The notes under the pieces were generated by a model. That model was not told where the DNA came from. It made no database searches and worked only from the letters and a program-made list of their open reading frames with translations. Shown here one piece after another: positions 205 through 9,108 of a stretch of 10,352 nucleotides of DNA (positions are counted from its first letter, which is position 1; each line of letters starts with the position of its first letter). The DNA is from Thermotogota bacterium. Lineage in GTDB: Bacteria > Thermotogota > Thermotogae > Petrotogales > Kosmotogaceae. Made by a program: the position numbers and the translations under genes. The DNA lies in the NCBI GenBank assembly GCA_034660555.1, contig JAYEJL010000121.1:1-10352 (forward strand), read 5' to 3'.

Positions 205-3021
205 GTGAAATACGCGATAATTATAAGCATAATCTTTTTTGTTGTGCTTTTTATTGTTGGTTGCCCAGACACCTGTCAAACTCCATCATATGAAATAACA
301 GTTACAGCTAATCCTTCTAATGGCGGACAGGTGAGTGGTGGAGGAACATTTGAACAGGGTACTGAAGTTACCATAGTCGCAACTGCAAATGAAAACTGGT
401 TATTTGATAATTGGACTGAAGAAAGCATAGAAGTTAGTAATAACAATATATATGTATTTAAAGCTAATGAAAACAGAGATCTTGTAGCGAACTTTGTTGA
501 AACAACACACCAGGTGACTGTTTCAGCAACCCCATCTGAAGGTGGACAGGCAAGTGGCGGAGGTACTTTTGAACATGGTACTGTAATCACAGTTAAAGCA
601 ACTCCAAATGAAGATTGGGAGTTTTTATATTGGACTGAGCAATTTGAAAAACTCTGTGATACAAAAGAATACTCATTTACTGTTGATAGAGATATTGAAT
701 TGGTAGCAAATTTCGTAGAAACACATTATATAACCGTAAGTTACAGTAATGGTGGAGAAGTCACCGAGAATGATGAAAAAAACATGGAGAAAATGAACAA
801 TGTTCATGTTACTAATTCATATCCTGATATTAGAGTAATCTGGGATGGAACACTTTATTGGGGGCTAAAGGAAAAGAAGTACTTCACACTGATAATAGAG
901 AATCAGACTGGCGGTAATTTTACAGGACATGCTGGACTTGAAGGGAATTTACCGAACAATGCAGTTAATGGCACAGTTAAACAAAATGGAGAAATAGAGT
1001 TCAGTTTCAAAGTGAAATCACAACCGCCAGATAATTCCACTTACGATTTCCAATTCAGTGGTGATGTTGTAAATAATACAATGGATGGAGACTGTGTTAT
1101 TTATAAAGAAAAAGAGTTTTATAAGAAATGCCCTTTTGAAGCTGATAAAAGAGAAACAGAAATCTATCCTGTTCAACACGGTAAAGATATAACTTTCGAC
1201 ATGATTCCAGATACTAATTATATTGTTGATTATGTGCAAGTAGATTGGGTATCGATTGGTCCAGAAACAACCTATACATTTGAAGATGTCATAGAAGATC
1301 ATTATTTTCATGCGGAATTTAAATTACAGTCCTATACGATTACTGCTACTGCTGGTGAAGGAGGATCTATATCTCCTTCAGGTGAAGTTCAGGTTCAACA
1401 TGGTGAGAATCAGACATTTACAATAACACCTGATGAGAATTATGCAATATACGGATTAATTGTAGATGGCTCTTACACTGATGTTGAACCAACCTATACG
1501 TTTGAAAATGTAACTTCCAACCACACAATTGAAGCACAATTTATCCGTACTTATACTATAGATGCATCATGCAGTGAAGGGGGAACAATAAATCCATCTG
1601 GAGAAATAGAAGTTTTTCACGGCTATGGACAATCATTTAGTATAACTCCTGATGAAGGTTATTCTGTCAACGATGTCTTAGTAGATGGAGCTTCAGTAGG
1701 TTCGAAAGAATCCTATGTGTTCAGTAATGTTACAACCGACCATACTATATATGCCTATTTCAAAGGGAGTCCCCCGCAATACAAATGGCAAAAAAACTAT
1801 GGTGGAACTGATGACGAATGGACAAACCAAATTCAACAAACCAGTGACAGTGGCTATATAGTATTCGGAACAACACTTTCGAATAATCATGATGTAAGCG
1901 GGAATCACGGAAATAGCGATGCATGGATCGTCAAATTAAATTCTACAGGAACGTTAGCTTGGCAGAACTGTATAGGTGGAAATAATGTAGATTATGGAAG
2001 ATCTATCCAGCAAACCTCAGATAATAAATATATAGTTGCAGGTAACACCTTTTCGAGCAGTATTTCAGATAGTCCAGAAAGTGAATACTATACGGAAGGA
2101 GTAACTTATTCTGACGCCTGGATTGCGAAAATCAATAGTTCTGGCGGAATAATATGGAAAAAACGTTTTGGAGGTAGCAGTGGCGATTCCGGAAGATCAA
2201 TAATACAGACAAATGATAATGGCTTTTTACTATTGGGTGATACAAGTTCTACTGATGGAGACGTTTCAGGTAGTAATGGAGGAAATGATATCTGGGTACT
2301 TAAACTCGATTCCTCCGGTGCAATAGACTGGAAAGATTGTTTTGGCGGTAGCGGTGATGAATTTGGCTACTCAGTTCAACAAACATTAGATAATGGATAT
2401 ATAATCGCTGGAAAAACTGCTTCAAACAATGGTGATGTAAGTGGAACACATGACACATACTGGGGAGATATGTGGGTTATTAAGCTCGATTCTGATGGCA
2501 ATCTTGACTGGCAAAAAACTCTTGGAGGAAGTTATGAAGATTGCGCACTATCAATAAGTCAAACTACTGATAATGGGTATATAGTTGCCGGTTACACAAA
2601 TTCAAGTGACGGTGATGTTACTGGCAAACATAGTTACAATGATATATGGATAGTTAAGTTAAGTTCCTCCGGAGCAATAGAATGGCAAAAAGCATTGGGG
2701 GGTAATTCAGAAGAATTCGCATCATCTGTAATTCAAACATCAGATGGATCCTATCTGATCGCAGGGACAACTTACTCAGATGATGGTGATGTAACTGGCA
2801 AGCATAATGGTAGCGACTTGTGGCTGGTAAAACTTGATCCTTCAGGAATGATAAAGTGGGAAGGCTGTTTCGGTGGCTCAAAAAATGACGGAGCGTCATC
2901 AATCGAGCAAACTGCAGATGGTGGATATATAGTATCTGGTTATTCATATTCAGATGATGGAGACCTTATAGATAATAACGGGGGGGAAGACTTCTGGATA
3001 ATTAAACTTAATTCTGATTAA
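205..3021 (+). CDS. Large surface lipoprotein: signal peptide II, five Ig-like/InlB-B-like repeats, C-terminal 7-bladed beta-propeller
   Basis: GTG start after AAGGAGG. Hydrophobic N-terminus ends in lipobox IVG-C20. Two repeats of type 'V..A.PS.GGQ.SGGGTFE.GT..T..AT.NE.W.F..WTE', three of type 'YTI.A...EGG.I.PSG...V.HG..Q.F.ITPD..Y.....VDG......YTF.NVT..HTI.A.F', then seven ~55-60 aa repeats 'W....GGS..D....I.QT.D.GYI.AG.T.S.DGDV.G......D.W..KL...G' from ~1780. Confidence 0.85.
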   Translation: MKYAIIISIIFFVVLFIVGCPDTCQTPSYEITVTANPSNGGQVSGGGTFEQGTEVTIVATANENWLFDNWTEESIEVSNNNIYVFKANENRDLVANFVETTHQVTVSATPSEGGQASGGGTFEHGTVITVKATPNEDWEFLYWTEQFEKLCDTKEYSFTVDRDIELVANFVETHYITVSYSNGGEVTENDEKNMEKMNNVHVTNSYPDIRVIWDGTLYWGLKEKKYFTLIIENQTGGNFTGHAGLEGNLPNNAVNGTVKQNGEIEFSFKVKSQPPDNSTYDFQFSGDVVNNTMDGDCVIYKEKEFYKKCPFEADKRETEIYPVQHGKDITFDMIPDTNYIVDYVQVDWVSIGPETTYTFEDVIEDHYFHAEFKLQSYTITATAGEGGSISPSGEVQVQHGENQTFTITPDENYAIYGLIVDGSYTDVEPTYTFENVTSNHTIEAQFIRTYTIDASCSEGGTINPSGEIEVFHGYGQSFSITPDEGYSVNDVLVDGASVGSKESYVFSNVTTDHTIYAYFKGSPPQYKWQKNYGGTDDEWTNQIQQTSDSGYIVFGTTLSNNHDVSGNHGNSDAWIVKLNSTGTLAWQNCIGGNNVDYGRSIQQTSDNKYIVAGNTFSSSISDSPESEYYTEGVTYSDAWIAKINSSGGIIWKKRFGGSSGDSGRSIIQTNDNGFLLLGDTSSTDGDVSGSNGGNDIWVLKLDSSGAIDWKDCFGGSGDEFGYSVQQTLDNGYIIAGKTASNNGDVSGTHDTYWGDMWVIKLDSDGNLDWQKTLGGSYEDCALSISQTTDNGYIVAGYTNSSDGDVTGKHSYNDIWIVKLSSSGAIEWQKALGGNSEEFASSVIQTSDGSYLIAGTTYSDDGDVTGKHNGSDLWLVKLDPSGMIKWEGCFGGSKNDGASSIEQTADGGYIVSGYSYSDDGDLIDNNGGEDFWIIKLNSD

Positions 3022-3154: not shown

Positions 3155-3968
3155 GTGAAGAACGATTCTAACGCTAAGCAAGAAAATGCTCCTGAAATAA
3201 GCTTCAGTTATTTGAGAAAATTCAATCTTTTTATGGGCATTCTGCATCTTATACAGGCTATCATGATGCTCACATTCGCCATAACCATCGACAAAATTAG
3301 CGCATTTAAGACTCCTATATGGTCCTATTTTCTCAAATTCGATTCAGAAAAAATGAGATTAGTTACAGATCCACAGAAATTGGGAGAAGTCCCTTTTGGA
3401 ATTTTTGTTTCGTTTTTCCTTTTTATATCGGCAATAGCGCATTTTATTATTGTTATGCCAAAGGCGAACGATGTATATAATCGTGATTTGAAAAAGGGCA
3501 TCAATAAATTCCGCTGGTATGAGTATTCCATTAGTTCATCATTAATGATCTTCCTTATAGCCATGCTGTTTGGGGTTTATGATGTTGGAGCTCTTATCGC
3601 AATTTTCCTTTTAAATGCTTCAATGAATTTATTTGGATTGTTAATGGAAGAAATAAACCAGTACACGGAAAAAACAAAACGGTCCCCTTTTGTTTTCGGC
3701 TGCATCGCAGGAATATCTCTGGATAATCATTTTCATGCATGCGTTTGGAAATGCCAATCCTGCTGAGGTTCCCTGGTTTGTTTATGCCATTATGGGTTCC
3801 TATTTTGTCTTCTTCAATTTATTCCCGATTAATATGATTCTCCAGTACAAAAAAGTTGGTAAGTGGTCTAACTACCTGTACGGGGAGAGAGGCTATATTA
3901 TGCTTAGTCTAATAGCCAAAACGGTTCTTGCATGGCTTGTATTTTTTGGAGTGATGCACCCTGCTTGA
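3155..3968 (+). pseudogene. heR: Heliorhodopsin, split by a frameshift at ~3719 (about 270-271 aa if repaired; may be an assembly error)
   Basis: ORF 3155-3766 has MGILHLIQ (TM1 His), ISAIAH (TM2 His), FRWYEYSISSS (counterion Glu), MNLFGLLME and FGCIAG. ORF 3690-3968 carries WIIIF...NMILQYKKVGKW.NYLYGE..YI.LSLIAK (retinal-binding Lys, SLxAK). Junction GGA ATA TCT C TGG lies where the family has G-x-x-P-W. Confidence 0.93.
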
Positions 3969-4628: not shown

Positions 4629-5050
4629 TTACTGATTCTCAAGTATCTTTATTAATTTATCTTTGAACCTCTTGATATCTTCAATACCACCAGAACGCAA
4701 TATTTCAAGTATTTGACTGTCATCAACCACCCAATATCTATGTATTATCAGGTTCCTAAAGCTCGCCATCTTTGAAAGATTATTGCCCAATTCTTCATCC
4801 AATAATCCCTGTTTTATAAGATTCAAAAAACACTGTTTATAACTACCAGGAGCTTTGAATTTTTTTAGTGAAGATAAATCATACAGGCATCAATAGAATT
4901 CTGTATAGCCCTTAATAAAGAAAATTTCAAACTTGAAAGTATATCGTAGTCAGCGAGTATTTGAGAATCAGGTAAATTCATTTTTTTCTCGATTTCTTTA
5001 ACCATTTTCGAAATCTCATCAATCAAATAGGGTAATCTTTCTTCTTTCAC
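4629..5050 (-). pseudogene. hepT: HepT/DUF86-type HEPN RNase toxin, frameshifted at ~4879-4880 (140 aa if one base is restored)
   Basis: The 61-aa and 65-aa track ORFs join when one base is added in TGT ATG [C]AT TTA TCT, giving ...AIQNSIDACM(H)LSSLKKFKAPGSYKQCFLNLIKQG...MASFRNLIIHRYW (RX4HXY motif). GTG start overlaps the MNT stop (GTGA, 5047-5050). Confidence 0.85.
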
Positions 5051-5511
5051 TTTTTTCCATCCTTTAAATTTTTTATGTAGTTTATCGTGGACTTTCTGTC
5101 AAGATAATCTCGCATTATCCTGAATTCAAAATCCACCCTCTTTTCTTCATTCTTAGATAACAACAAAGTTCCACTTATTGCAACAGCAGCAAAATCCACA
5201 GGAGCATTATTAATTACTTTAACGTCAATTGGAATATTCAAAGTAGATTCTATCTCATAAGAAAGATCAAGTTCATACGAGAGAGTATTAGAAGGTAGAG
5301 GGTCAACTACTACAGCAATATCAATATCCCCAAAAATTTCCTTTTCATTAAAAGAACCATATATGTATGCTAAAATAACTTCTTTTTTCTCATCTAATAA
5401 CTCTTTCAACAGTTCATACACAAGTTTCTTGTTTTTTGTTTTATAGAAATAAAGCTCCTCTTCTTCTACATCTTCATTAACGCAAATAAACAAATTCTTT
5501 TTATCCCTCAA
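5047..5511 (-). CDS. mntA: Minimal nucleotidyltransferase (MntA-type antitoxin)
   Basis: LAYIYGSF-x7-DIDIAV (GS...DxD) plus IDVKVIN third Asp. TTG start after AGGAGGAG. Directly upstream of and overlapping a HEPN gene. Confidence 0.88.
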   Translation of the reverse strand: MRDKKNLFICVNEDVEEEELYFYKTKNKKLVYELLKELLDEKKEVILAYIYGSFNEKEIFGDIDIAVVVDPLPSNTLSYELDLSYEIESTLNIPIDVKVINNAPVDFAAVAISGTLLLSKNEEKRVDFEFRIMRDYLDRKSTINYIKNLKDGKK

Positions 5512-5971: not shown

Positions 5972-6272
5972 CAGAAAAACAAATTTCAAACTTCATTTCT
6001 TGACCTTTTAATCTGACTATTTACTTATGAACTGGCGTACTACGTAAAATCAACTATAGCACAGCGTCTCTATATGTCCAATCCACACACAGCCTCTGGC
6101 AGCCCTATTTAAAACCGTTGTACAAAGAATGTAGATAACCACCTTTACTAATGTAAATGTCTTGTACAGACTTTTTCCCACATCGTCCACAATATGTATA
6201 TTCAAACCCTGAGATTTATTTACCTCCTTGTATTGTGCTTATTCTTATTTCAAGCCTTTTGCTCACGATTGC

Positions 6273-6354
6273 GTACAACGATTTTAGCATTCACGACGTT
6301 GCCGAAGGCAATGTCCTTAAGGCGTAAGCAAGAAGCGTATATAGTGTGTTATAC
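6273..6354 (-). other. attC-like recombination site 2 (82 bp)
   Basis: Minus strand: GTATAAC (contains the TAA stop of the 189-aa gene) ... internal hairpin TTGCC-TTC-GGCAA ... CGTGAATGCTAAAATC-GTTGTAC. Outer arms GCGTATAAC/GTTGTACGC pair almost perfectly; inner arms pair poorly. Confidence 0.7.
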
Positions 6355-6918
6355 GCTGTTGCTTTCTCTATTCTTATGTTCATAAGAAAATCCACAAAAG
6401 AAACAATATACTGTATCCTGCCAATTCTCCTCTATCTTTATTTTACGTTGACAGCACGGAAGATCGAATATTTCCATATCATTGACCTCAGGAGACACCC
6501 ATGGTTCATGTTGTTCCATCTCCTTACCTTCAAACCGTATAGAAACCATACCAGAACTATGTCTTTGAGAAGTTTCCTTAAGTGGACGTATGAGATTTTC
6601 ATTAACTATCTTTGCCATAATGTTTTTGGCGACAATACCCACATAGGCAAGTTGTTCTTCTGTCCAGCAACTGTTGCTAGACGCCGGTTGCCCGCAGTAA
6701 GGGCAGATAAATTCAATTTTTGAACGTTCACTCTCATCTAAATCTGTTACCTCTTCTTTCGGCTTGATCATAAAGGAGTCTATACCCTTCTGAGCAATAT
6801 CTGTTAACTCCTCTTTTTCTAATAAGACCTTAAATTCTTTACGACAAAAAGGACATTCTCTTCTAAAGAATCCGTCATCATCTAGAGGAAATGGAAGGTT
6901 CATACTAATTTCACTCAT
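6349..6918 (-). CDS. Multi-zinc-ribbon hypothetical protein (second gene of cassette 2)
   Basis: 189 aa with DDDGFFRRECPFC, FICPYCG, LPCC and YCFFCG (four Cys pairs). AAGGAGG RBS; ATGA overlap with the upstream gene's stop; its own stop lies inside the attC inverse core. Confidence 0.8.
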   Translation of the reverse strand: MSEISMNLPFPLDDDGFFRRECPFCRKEFKVLLEKEELTDIAQKGIDSFMIKPKEEVTDLDESERSKIEFICPYCGQPASSNSCWTEEQLAYVGIVAKNIMAKIVNENLIRPLKETSQRHSSGMVSIRFEGKEMEQHEPWVSPEVNDMEIFDLPCCQRKIKIEENWQDTVYCFFCGFSYEHKNRESNSV

Positions 6919-7705
6919 TTGGCTTCCTCCTTTATCTGATTAAAGCGGCGGATAATCGCCGTAGAGAGAGTTGAAGCAGTATTTATAGCAAGCTCTGCTA
7001 TATTCTCCGATACACCAGGTGGAAATATGCCTTTCCCGTGAGCGTCTCCTAACGTATTTCTTAATCCTCCTAAATGAGTCACGACACCTGATAGAGCATT
7101 CATAAGGATTAGAGTTGCTCCAGAGGGATCACGTTCATCAAAGTGTAGGATATCTCGTGTGGACTTCCACAGGTCAGAGATCTGTTTTTTGCTGGGTAAA
7201 GGTTGCTCTAACATTTCATGACAAATTCTCATAACGCTCTCAAGACAGGCGATACTTCTCGTAACTGAATTTTCAAAATTTCCATCTCGGATTGCCTTTC
7301 GAGCTTTCTCCAAATCTTTGTAAGCAGAGTAAAAACCTTGCGCTTCGAAAAGTCCCCTTGTTGTGGAAACAATCTGGCGTGTCGTTTCGGCTGTAACCAG
7401 ACCACATGTGCGGCAAAAATCTAATGTTGTCTCTCTTTTGCGGATCTTGCAAAAAAAAGATTCTACATCGAAAGAGGTACCGCCTATGTATGGATAGATT
7501 CGAACCTTTGGAAGGACTGCGTCGCAACCGACCTCTCTAAAAATCTTTCCAGCAGGACAATTAAAGCAAATAGTTGGTTAACCTCGTTCGTAGTTTTATC
7601 TCCAGTCTGTCGTGCTGCTCGACATATAAGGGTACCCATTCCAACTTGTTGCAGATGACATTCCACGTTGTCATTTTCTTTAGGTTCTTTAAGTTGATTT
7701 GGCAT
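6915..7705 (-). pseudogene. Cys-rich N-terminal domain fused to Abi_C-like HEPN domain, frameshifted at ~7576 (263 aa if one base is restored)
   Basis: ATG 7705 after AGGAGGT. Adding one C in GTT AAC C[C]A ACT joins the 73-aa ORF to a stop-free frame TICFNCPAGKIFREVGCDAVLPKVRIYPYIGGTSFDVESFFCKIRKRETTLDFCRTCGLV...YKDLEKARKAI, which continues into the 132-aa ORF with SIACLESV and LRNTLGDAHGKG (RN-x5-HG, abortive-infection C-terminal type). Confidence 0.8.
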
Positions 7706-7744
7706 TCATGACCTCCTGTTCATTCCCACAAGATAATGAATGAC

Positions 7745-7825
7745 GTATAACGTTCCCAGCATATACGAAGTTTCGGCGTAAACCGATTTGGGCGAGCTTA
7801 GTGAGCAGCTTATGCTGCGTTATCG
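7745..7825 (-). other. attC-like recombination site 1 (81 bp)
   Basis: Minus strand: CGATAAC-G-CAGCATA ... TCGG-TTTACG-CCGA ... TATGCTG-GGAAC-GTTATAC, starting 7 nt after the stop of the 367-aa gene. CAGCATA/TATGCTG and ATAAC/GTTAT are complementary. Confidence 0.72.
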
Positions 7826-7832
7826 GAAATAC

Positions 7833-8936
7833 TCATTTTAATCTATTTTCTTCAAATGATTTTTGTATCAAATCTTTGGCATTTTGAAATCTTTGGATGC
7901 TATCAATTGCAAGCTCCACATCGCCTACCCCCCAATGTCCAATGTTTGAAACATCACGAACATATTCAGATAGGCCTTCTAAATCCGAATAATTTAACTT
8001 CAACCAAACACGAAGCCCACTTTTCTGAGTGTGAACACAACAAAAAATATTATTTCCATGTGAATATCTGGCATACTTGGCGAGATACTTTCTTTGAACC
8101 ATTGTTGGATCAAGCTCTCTACAAAATTTATCAATTGTCCGAAATAATTCAACAACTTCTCGTGGTTTTCCTTTTAAGTGATGTCCCTCACTATACTCTT
8201 TACCTCTTGCTCCAGTTCTCTCGGGATGTACAGAGTCTACACCAAATGTTGAAGAAATCTTGATCTCTGATGTTTGGGCCCAGAGCCTCTTGAGAGCTTT
8301 CTTAACTTGCATTGGTTTAATGGTATCATCTCCAATGGCGGAGCGTATAAGTCTGATAAATGTATTTGGAGGGTCCGTGAAAAGTTTATCTAAAGCTTTT
8401 CTTATCTTTCCTGTGGTGAAGATTTGTTCACCAATTTCGTCAAGTAGGCCTTTAGCCATTGCATCACGTGAGAAACGAGCAAATTGCTTTGCAACTTGTT
8501 GAATTGTCATGCCCTCGGTTTCTTTTGGATCAAGAGAAATTTCAAAAAGTAACTTATCAGGAGCTTCCGCCTTTTCGGTGGTGTGATAAACTTTGTAAGT
8601 AATGCCATTAGTAAGAATACTCCACTCAACACCAGCATTAGCAGCGTAACCGACTACTTGTGTAATCGATTTAACGTCTGTAAGTGAATCATTTAACGGT
8701 TTCGCCTCTATGAATAGAACTGGTTTGCGGTTTATTTTGGGTGCATAGTCAACGGACTTTCCATCAATAGTCGGATACTCAAGTTCCACTTCGTCTGGGT
8801 CTCTTACATCCCAGCCGAGAGCCTGAAGAAATGGATCTACGAATATTGTTCGTGTTGGATACTCTTTTAAGTTATCTTTTCGGTACTTATCCAATTTCAG
8901 CCGGAGGTCCTCAATACATTTGATTATGGTATCCAT
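7833..8936 (-). CDS. HsdR N-terminal-like PD-(D/E)xK endonuclease fused to C-terminal DUF5655-like domain (cassette 1)
   Basis: E..TR..FVDPFLQALGWDV..PDEV..EY...GKSVDY...LFIEAK...QVVGYA...EWSILTNG typical of HsdR-N-like nucleases. C-terminal RDVSNIGHWGVGDVEL typical of DUF5655. AGGAGGT RBS. No helicase motifs. Confidence 0.85.
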   Translation of the reverse strand: MDTIIKCIEDLRLKLDKYRKDNLKEYPTRTIFVDPFLQALGWDVRDPDEVELEYPTIDGKSVDYAPKINRKPVLFIEAKPLNDSLTDVKSITQVVGYAANAGVEWSILTNGITYKVYHTTEKAEAPDKLLFEISLDPKETEGMTIQQVAKQFARFSRDAMAKGLLDEIGEQIFTTGKIRKALDKLFTDPPNTFIRLIRSAIGDDTIKPMQVKKALKRLWAQTSEIKISSTFGVDSVHPERTGARGKEYSEGHHLKGKPREVVELFRTIDKFCRELDPTMVQRKYLAKYARYSHGNNIFCCVHTQKSGLRVWLKLNYSDLEGLSEYVRDVSNIGHWGVGDVELAIDSIQRFQNAKDLIQKSFEENRLK

Positions 8937-8957
8937 TTTTTACCTCCTGAACATTCC

Positions 8958-8985
8958 TGATAACTCATTTTTATGCGAAATTGTC
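8958..8985 (-). other. Putative attI-like entry site of the cassette array
   Basis: Minus strand GACAATTTCGCATAAAAATGA-GTTATCA. The core is complementary to cassette 1's inverse core, but no upstream AAC inverse core exists, so it is not an attC. Confidence 0.45.
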
Positions 8986-9028
8986 CGTATATACCTCCAG
9001 TCTGAGGATATATACGAAGTACTTCGTA
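8986..9028. repeat. Overlapping 12-bp bulged hairpin (8986-9016) and perfect 16-bp palindrome (9013-9028)
   Basis: CGTATATACCTC-cagtct-GAGG(A)TATATACG and TACGAAGT/ACTTCGTA. Confidence 0.85.
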
Positions 9029-9034
9029 AATACT

Positions 9035-9108
9035 CTTTTTATCAAAAGATAACATATTTTATCCTACAGAACAAATACAGAGCAAAAGAACAGATAAAAA
9101 ACCATACT
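9035..9108 (-). repeat. 74-bp direct repeat copy 1, containing a leftward sigma70-like promoter (TTGCTC-18-TAAAAT) facing the cassette array
   Basis: 67/74 identical to 9795-9868. On the minus strand, -35 is at 9085-9080 and -10 at 9061-9056. The repeat is directly visible; promoter function is inferred. Confidence 0.8.

Follow-up and report, generated by a model that had tools for sequence, protein, structure and literature searches.

What kind of element is the two-gene unit on the minus strand of contig JAYEJL010000121.1, from a Thermotogota bacterium, and is it still intact in this genome? The stretch analysed (the window) is the entire 10,352-bp contig, and the genome bin to which it belongs comprises 2.1 Mb in 188 contigs at 95.5% completeness; a DnaN gene marks the organism as a bacterium. 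The upstream gene, called A here, is split between two reading frames and encodes a cysteine-rich N-terminal domain followed by a HEPN domain; the downstream gene, B, is intact and encodes a smaller cysteine-rich protein (Table 1). A first-pass annotation, made from the letters of the window, had put the pair forward as an undescribed anti-phage system. We read the locus as the decayed copy of a two-gene conflict module that spreads by horizontal transfer and is of the abortive-infection type; it would combine a HEPN RNase with zinc-binding sensor or regulator parts. We give this reading a probability of about 0.6. What is new here is the combination of A and B; the parts, an AbiJ-class HEPN protein and a PDC-M14A-like protein, are of known kinds.

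Gene A was followed through its break by comparison with relatives. Intact homologues are 263 aa long and read without interruption at the break point (...TTNEVNPTICFNC...), and the 5' part of A in the window aligns with residues 1-43 of the intact homologue P0001 at 90.7% identity (tblastn, frame -2). At the site itself the window reads AACCAA (GTTAACCAACT, AACCAACT), whereas the relatives read AAT/AAC CCN ACN (GTTAAT/CCCA-type; n = 11); because 11 relatives have this sequence, one base is missing in the window at about 7576-7579. The first-pass annotation, in which one added base restored a 263-aa protein, is thus right on this point. In the downstream frame no start codon occurs before a TTG at 7313, from which only a truncated HEPN piece of 132 aa would be read. 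The AGGAGG motif ahead of A is kept in loci L007, L008, and L020. The minus strand upstream of A showed no sigma-70-like promoter.

The C-terminal part of A belongs to the AbiJ/Abi_C class of HEPN domains, carries an R-x6-H motif, and is predicted to act as an RNase. In Pfam, Abi_C matched residues 158-206 of the 220-aa piece of A (9.7e-09, 35.7 bits against a cut-off of 24) and the intact relative from L005 at 41.3 bits; Abi_C, HEPN, and DUF7014 were the only families with E ≤0.01 on the window pieces and the L005 protein, and the N-terminal domain had no Pfam match at that threshold in either. The PADLOC model for AbiJ matched the C-terminal 121 residues of A (1.2e-10, profile positions 154-274 of 281). 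We aligned 24 A sequences, which are 24-89% identical to the first one. R216 and H223 of the R-x6-H motif are kept in at least 90% of them, and LRNTLGDAHGKG is present in A. Eight columns are invariant, namely M1 and seven cysteines (C28, C47, C50, C61, C86, C98, and C101), and the remaining cysteine, C16, is kept in at least 90%. The eight-cysteine N terminus ahead of an Abi_C/HEPN domain, as first described from the window, is real, and the full-length homologues keep it.

The fold of A was examined on an AlphaFold2 model of P0001, which is about 89% identical to A of the window; its mean predicted local distance difference test score (pLDDT) is 88.7. In a PDB-wide comparison with VIA-align, residues 121-255 of the model superimposed on the HEPN protein 1ufb_A (Z 13.3, root-mean-square deviation 2.9, 121 residues), and residues 121-263 on 2hsb (Z 12.6) and the sacsin HEPN domain (Z 12.1). 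Lower-scoring HEPN matches of the model were AbiA (9.7), HepS (8.3), and AbiV (7.8), together with LsoA and Csm6. In Foldseek, HEPN proteins made up 12 of the top 13 matches listed for the P0001 model, all with E ≥0.1; against the PDB, neither the A model nor the B model had a match at E ≤0.001, and a sequence-profile search of solved structures had no match below E 0.1.

The N-terminal domain of A, about 105 aa long, is modelled as beta-hairpins and short helices, and its cysteine pattern suggests that it may bind two metal ions, probably zinc. A search of the ESM Atlas with residues 1-108 gave no usable hit, and none of 18 candidates for longer proteins with this domain scored, which is weak evidence. 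In a library clustered at 50% identity, A had 28 homologues at E ≤1e-30 and 66 at E ≤1e-10; the weaker matches in that library covered the HEPN part only and had other N termini.

Protein B matched the PADLOC model for PDC-M14A (PDLC04447) in two stretches, at 8.8e-26 and 89.1 bits; a canonical PDC-M14A member matches the same model at 2.6e-55. Four cysteine pairs (C22/C25, C72/C75, C155/C156, and C172/C175) are invariant in 27 B sequences. The first-pass term multi-zinc-ribbon overstated this arrangement: two predicted four-cysteine zinc sites fit better than four separate ribbons. B is acidic, with an isoelectric point (pI) of 4.8 (range 4.6-5.0), whereas A is near neutral. In the structural model of B (mean pLDDT 78.9), two small beta-hairpin clusters are predicted with a long helix (residues 87-119) between them and a disordered acidic insert. 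Prediction of an A-B complex scored 0.00 in both runs, which is neither support for binding nor evidence against it.

The two genes are strictly conserved together and in a fixed order. In a search with A, B was found directly 3' of A in 14 of 15 genome loci, the contig of the fifteenth ending 47 nt past A; of the 59 metagenome loci found in a search with B, 54 have A directly 5' of it and five start inside B. The pair is therefore present at every locus at which it could be tested (14/14 and 54/54), the two counts overlapping in that some metagenome loci repeat genome loci. After removal of identical pairs, both genes were full length at 39 loci. The reading frames of A and B overlap by 4 nt in 21 of these and by 8 nt in 10; in the window the stop codon of A overlaps the ATG of the 189-aa B, as had been noted at first sight. 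Pairwise identities of A and B are correlated across the 39 loci (r = 0.93 for 741 non-independent pairs), and divergence is faster in B, with a mean identity of 49% compared to 62% for A.

Three candidates for a different organization were considered. A 450-aa protein (P0243) was rejected as an A-B fusion, since it looks like a read-through after a frame shift near the C terminus of A. P0289, possibly a chimera, carries a SAVED domain fused to no more than residues 1-56 of A. A third gene conserved with the pair was likewise rejected: a roughly 300-aa protein and a dual-specificity phosphatase occur 3' of B in one divergent sub-clade only (L004, L005, and L077-L081). The former, a protein of about 290-314 aa with the motif GFFGLFDILGYRSL (L005:1986-2930, L004:581-1471, L006:2153-3016), had no Pfam or PADLOC hit; in this sub-clade its neighbour is the A-B pair, and in another genome it is canonical PDC-M14. 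The dual-specificity-phosphatase-like protein comes next after it in L004 and L005.

Copies of the pair that are 53-91% identical occur in metagenome-assembled genomes labelled Actinomycetota, Aminicenantes, several Chloroflexota classes, Omnitrophota, Syntrophobacteraceae, Phycisphaerae, and Anaeromyxobacter. The home of the family is almost entirely uncultured bacteria of sediment, subsurface, and bioreactors. No close copy was found in the four genomes of the same genus that were searched; another genus has copies of about 35% identity in two genomes, and one further genome has canonical PDC-M14A. Of 151 genomes of the phylum, 5 had a member of the PDC-M14A family.

The flanks of the genome loci are all different. 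They include GmrSD (L012), McrBC (L016), AAA_21 ATPases (L013 and L021), an Eco57I/MmeI-type restriction-modification enzyme with Schlafen/AlbA_2 and AbiEi (L017), an SMC-like ATPase with HNH (L015), PIN (L020), and Fic/RhuM (L011), along with transposases (L009, L011, and L012) and integrases (L018 and L019). In the window, the pair has a PDC-S18-like gene on one side and an MntA/HepT pair on the other. The flanking defence and mobility genes, viewed by eye over 15 loci, give the pair a defence-like context.

Decayed copies are found outside the window as well. At L011, a GAA codon of A has become a TAA nonsense codon and B contains a DDE transposase of an insertion sequence; at L021, both A and B contain frame shifts. 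At L020, A is intact and B is interrupted at codon 12 by a 154-bp insert (L020:5829-5982) resembling a miniature inverted-repeat transposable element. At L004, about 20 residues of the cysteine-rich domain of A are missing. The damage in some of these other copies may reflect assembly errors of metagenome bins. The L020 insert, which looks like a miniature transposable element, ends in inverted repeats of about 21 nt and has a palindromic core rich in G and C.

The unit in the window is bounded on both sides by attC-like sites, which are imperfect inverted repeats. Its G+C content is 40.6%, compared to about 35% around it, and DNA similarity to the nearest loci ends at 6347 and at 7740-7771. 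At the 3' end, GCGTATAAC (6348-6356) overlaps the stop codon of B, and its inverted partner GTTGTACGC (6271-6279) lies 77 nt downstream; the two match at 8 of 9 positions, attC core sites having the form RYYYAAC ... GTTRRRY. The same attC-like arrangement recurs at this offset in L007 and L020, where the inner repeats are clearer; the A proteins of these loci share 90-91% identity with P0001. This 3' region has a fold z-score of -3.29, but its lowest-energy fold is a local hairpin that does not pair the two ends. At the 5' boundary, a segment of about 7747-7779 is common to contigs of four sequencing runs, which part at 7740-7748 on one side and at 7772-7780 on the other, with a depth of 76 compared to about 18; independent contigs diverge exactly at 7746-7748. 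A shared core with diverging neighbours is the behaviour expected of a recombination site common to different cassettes. The first-pass annotation had both genes lying in one cassette and moving as a unit, with which the extent of the similarity, the attC-like flanks, and the divergence of the contigs agree. The core, 33 nt long (7747-7779), has different neighbours on either side in several metagenome contigs.

Because this core joins different neighbours, only the original assembler joined the pair to the preceding cassette; on the other side, an independent 4.2-kb contig confirms that the pair continues into the region below 6200. A second copy of the upstream attC-like site was not found in the genome bin. 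No integron integrase was found in the bin either (the best match to TIGR02249, at 86.6 bits against a cut-off of 265, is a 157-aa C-terminal tyrosine recombinase fragment on another contig; L022, contig C33:848-4056), and the bin being 95.5% complete, absence of IntI is not shown. The pair is best called a cassette between attC-like sites without a known integrase. Under a strict rule, an attC-like site was found 3' of B in 4 of 73 loci, compared to 3 of 213 coding windows in the control. At the offset of the stop codon it is present only in the window, L007, and L020; that of L085 lies elsewhere and looks like chance. Cassette capture is therefore a feature of one sub-clade and not of the family. 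The recombinase fragment of L022 lies beside open reading frames (ORFs) of 323 and 451 aa. Upstream of the preceding cassette is a palindrome that may be part of a third attC-like site.

We compared the pair with described systems that share parts with it. AbiJ, an abortive-infection protein of Lactococcus, has, as A does, a variable N-terminal domain followed by an Abi_C-type HEPN domain with R-x6-H. Pfam holds AbiJ_NTD models; the N-terminal domain of A is the eight-cysteine domain and not one of the described AbiJ-NTD1-5. Further, AbiJ is a single-gene system, whereas A has an obligatory second gene. The N-terminal domains of AbiJ were proposed in 2013 as sensors that restrain the HEPN domain (PMC3710099).

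With PDC-M14 the pair shares one component and not the other, because A matches no PDC-M14B model (no hit at E up to 10; hhalign probability 0.2). B has the four cysteine pairs of canonical PDC-M14A, but it contains an additional acidic helical insert of about 28 aa, and the order of partners is reversed: A is upstream of the gene for the zinc protein, PDC-M14B downstream of it. Canonical PDC-M14, found in a relative's genome and in Lysinibacillus and Bacillus plasmids (L006, L091, and L092), consists of PDC-M14A of 144-152 aa followed by PDC-M14B of 240-270 aa without a Pfam domain. The PDC-M14B model (PDLC04448) had no match in the whole genome at E up to 1. In the ESM Atlas, PDC-M14B retrieved its own clusters and, as the only lead, a weak one to AbiTii at 0.88. 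The preprint that introduced the PDC systems describes them as 145 untested candidates selected through guilt by embedding in BREX, DISARM, and type I restriction-modification loci (10.1101/2024.01.29.577857). A search of the full text of the literature found no paper naming PDC-M14, whose composition is probably given in the supplements of the preprint. The novelty claimed in the first-pass annotation consequently holds in part: B belongs, if distantly, to the PDC-M14A family and A matches AbiJ/Abi_C, whereas the A-B combination is new and A is not PDC-M14B.

Three validated systems are close in design. RAZR (PD-T7-4, the ring-activated zinc-finger RNase) is described as binding phage ring proteins through an N-terminal zinc finger, which activates its HEPN RNase, and the R and H of its HEPN motif are reported to be needed for defence (PMC13017515). 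An N-terminal zinc-binding domain followed by a C-terminal HEPN domain is also predicted for A, and RAZR is, by analogy, the best working model for how A may act. As described, however, RAZR is a single gene with a Cys4 ribbon and a DUF4145-type HEPN domain, whereas A has eight cysteines, an Abi_C-type HEPN domain, and a partner gene. The PADLOC models for PD-T7-4 and HEC-08 had no hit for A (the former at E up to 10). HEC-08 is reported as a validated defence system that combines HEPN with zinc-finger-like domains and requires the HEPN histidine (10.1101/2024.01.29.577857). It resembles the pair in joining HEPN to zinc-ribbon-like modules; in that account, it differs in having an N-terminal DUF3644 HEPN domain and C-terminal zinc fingers in one protein. 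Taranis, compared by its description only, is a validated Abi_C defence gene in a chromosomal integron cassette of Vibrio cholerae (10.1101/2024.07.02.601686). It resembles A in being an Abi_C/HEPN gene carried in a cassette; by the same description it is a single gene, and its N terminus is distantly related to AbiJ_NTD5.

Both cysteine-rich parts of the pair recur with unrelated effector domains. In Rhodococcus and Kocuria plasmids, a B-like protein is encoded directly 3' of a CAP12/Pycsar-type TIR protein, with a 4-nt overlap in Rhodococcus. At these plasmid loci (L089:2629-3923 and L090:2645-3962) the TIR protein is PDC-S35-like, and the B-like proteins match PDC-M14A at 1.3e-14 and 7.8e-10. 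In Lysinibacillus and Bacillus plasmids, the B-like protein is upstream of PDC-M14B. The eight-cysteine domain of A is fused to a CAP12/Pycsar TIR domain (Pfam 9.3e-14) in the 513-aa metagenomic protein P0313 (E 1.8e-09 over residues 10-108). The TIR and PDC-M14B pairings and P0313 speak for a modular system.

Abortive infection is the most likely mechanism, by analogy with validated HEPN systems, and a zinc-binding sensor or antitoxin that controls an RNase, which was also the logic of the first-pass annotation, is the most plausible arrangement. We favour an abortive-infection module because RAZR, HEC-08, Taranis, and the AbiJ-NTD proposal are the closest working models. In such a module, A would be held inactive; B, co-translated from the overlapping start, would bind or regulate A as an inhibitor, as a sensor of the trigger, or as both. 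A phage-derived trigger would be sensed by the cysteine-rich domain of A, by B, or by the two together. RNA would then be cleaved by the HEPN domain, which probably acts as a dimer or larger oligomer, and growth would stop.

Several observations weigh against the abortive-infection module. The PDC systems are presented as untested candidates in their source (10.1101/2024.01.29.577857). L020, with its intact A and disrupted B, fits poorly with B as an indispensable antitoxin, and this locus does not speak for B as a sensor. The predicted metal sites of A derive from the cysteine pattern, the fold was modelled on P0001 and not on the broken product of the window, and the PDB-wide VIA-align search matched B to no recognisable fold (best Z 3.6). 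Among 50,697 phage records there was no homologue of either protein, and plasmids yielded no full-length A, with 0 of 108 matching records covering 80% of it. Defence-island enrichment at the 15 loci was judged without a background rate.

Whether the break in A belongs to the organism bears directly on the module's state in this genome. We compared the window over 6200-7900 with independently assembled contigs from four public runs (X1-X4) of one study; runs X5-X11 contain only small shares of the stretch, and the comparison rests on X1-X4. The Logan contig of X1, possibly the source sample, covers 6200-7776 with 0 differences and 0 gaps. That of X2, another sample of the same study, covers 7276-7779 with 0 gaps; it is a separate assembly, since it differs from the window at two positions (6280 and 7143). 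Because both contigs match without gaps, the deletion is carried by the DNA of two samples. A sequencing or assembly error, with gene A intact and functional in the organism, would be in keeping with the state of three genes of this 10-kb contig (A, heliorhodopsin, and HepT), each split between two reading frames as if by one small indel, a high rate for a real genome that would fit a systematic indel error; the breaks in heliorhodopsin (about 3690-3766) and HepT (about 4826-4865) are at or near C4/T4 and A7 runs, and the records of the runs do not name the sequencing platform. X1 and X2 belong to one study, and the first is possibly the source sample, which makes their support not fully independent. 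The site in A, however, is not a long homopolymer (AACCAA compared to AATCCA or AACCCA), the contigs of X1 and X2 cross it without gaps, and decayed copies are known from L011, L021, and L020. An error is for these reasons unlikely. The first-pass annotation had treated the break as something to repair; we consider gene A in this genome very probably a real pseudogene, and the module is therefore probably non-functional here.

The other two alternatives concern what an intact pair would do. In a classical toxin-antitoxin addiction module, A would be a constitutive HEPN toxin and B its acidic antitoxin, which together would stabilise a cassette array or a mobile element. Integron arrays often carry toxin-antitoxin cassettes. 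The pairing of a HEPN toxin with a protein antitoxin is well documented, the window itself contains an MntA/HepT pair, and HEPN-MNT structures are among the fold matches of A. The overlapping frames, the strict coupling of the genes, and the low pI of B next to a near-neutral A fit this explanation, and loss of the toxin with retention of the partner, as in the window, would be a usual path of decay for such modules. A constitutive toxin with its antitoxin disrupted, as at L020, would nevertheless kill if the cassette were expressed. An addiction module also sits uneasily with the three unrelated partner types of B-like proteins (HEPN, TIR-like, and PDC-M14B) and with the conserved eight-cysteine domain of A itself, which resembles sensor-effector fusions. 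We consider it a minority explanation, rather improbable as it stands, and one compatible with abortive infection. A housekeeping or regulatory role in RNA processing, unrelated to conflict with phages or mobile elements, is very improbable: HEPN domains are described as acting in RNA processing too (PMC3710099), and the A-B family has no phenotype on record, but the pair is patchy among close kin, occurs as 53-91% identical copies in distant phyla with unrelated flanks, lies between attC-like sites in the window, and has decayed repeatedly, and its family ties are to Abi_C/AbiJ and PDC-M14A.

If the abortive-infection module does defend against phages, it would be a compact system of about 1.4 kb that joins a HEPN RNase to two kinds of cysteine-rich modules. 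A wider proposal, which we make tentatively and regard as somewhat doubtful, is that the B family serves as a promiscuous sensor or regulator for Abi_C HEPN, TIR, and PDC-M14B proteins, that the eight-cysteine domain of A is a second, so far unnamed metal-binding sensor domain common to HEPN and TIR proteins, and that together they form a new modular abortive-infection family, widespread in uncultured anaerobes and occasionally carried as integron cassettes. Defence by the A-B pair would also give a context to the PADLOC candidate PDC-M14A, as one small zinc protein that serves HEPN, TIR-like, and PDC-M14B partners. That raises the question whether these zinc proteins sense triggers, like the zinc finger of RAZR, or are general-purpose antitoxins. 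With a few copies between attC-like sites, the view that integron cassettes store defence genes would extend beyond Vibrio. For this genome the message is more modest: the effector gene is broken.

Table 1. Positions of the A-B unit, its boundaries, and neighbouring features in the window.
Feature	Position	Strand	Remarks
Gene A, 5' part (codons 1-43)	7578..7705	-	ATG 7705..7703; holds C16 and C28; first frame from the ATG at 7705: MPNQLKEPKENDNVECHLQQVGMGTLICRAARQTGDKTTNEVN
Gene A, 3' part (residues 44-263 and TGA)	6915..7577	-	other reading frame, starting at 7577: PTICFNCPAGKIF...; stop TGA at 6917-6915
Cysteine-rich domain of A, remainder	to ~7392	-	
HEPN domain of A	~7346..6918	-	
Catalytic residues of A (predicted)	R216 7061..7059; H223 7040..7038	-	
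1-nt deletion shifting the frame of A	7576..7579	-	comparison with 11 relatives
AGGAGG ribosome-binding site of A	7712..7717	-	6 nt 5' of the ATG
Gene B	6349..6918	-	intact, 189 aa
ATGA, overlap of A stop and B start	6915..6918	-	
GGAGG ahead of the B start	6931..6927	-	
attC-like site, 3' end of the A-B cassette	6271..6356	-	inverted repeats, GCCTTCGGC hairpin in the centre
attC-like site of the preceding cassette	7743..7826	-	5' boundary of A-B; GATAACGCAGCATA ... TATGCTGGGAACGTTATACG
Preceding (upstream) cassette, PDC-S18-like gene	7833..8936	-	367-aa HSDR_N + DUF5655 protein
Palindrome upstream of the preceding cassette	8976..9026		possible third attC-like site at ~8945..9035
MntA/HepT pair	4629..5511	-	
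MntA-like nucleotidyltransferase	5047..5511	-	intact
HepT/DUF86 partner of MntA	4865..5050 and 4629..4826	-	split
Heliorhodopsin gene	3155..3968	+	two overlapping ORFs
Predicted lipoprotein	205..3021	+	938 aa

The remaining genes of the window were inspected as well. The protein of the upstream cassette had a PADLOC hit to PDC-S18 (3.1e-23) and also matches the N-terminal part of a type IIG enzyme model. The 938-aa predicted lipoprotein contains repeated domains and weakly resembles SBBP beta-propeller lipoproteins (NF047494, 6.5e-13, far under the cut-off). The gene for the HepT/DUF86 partner of MntA is split by a shift at an A7 run. The two ORFs of the heliorhodopsin gene match positions 1-161 and 163-242 of Pfam PF18761, and the split between them is a one-base shift near C4/T4 runs.

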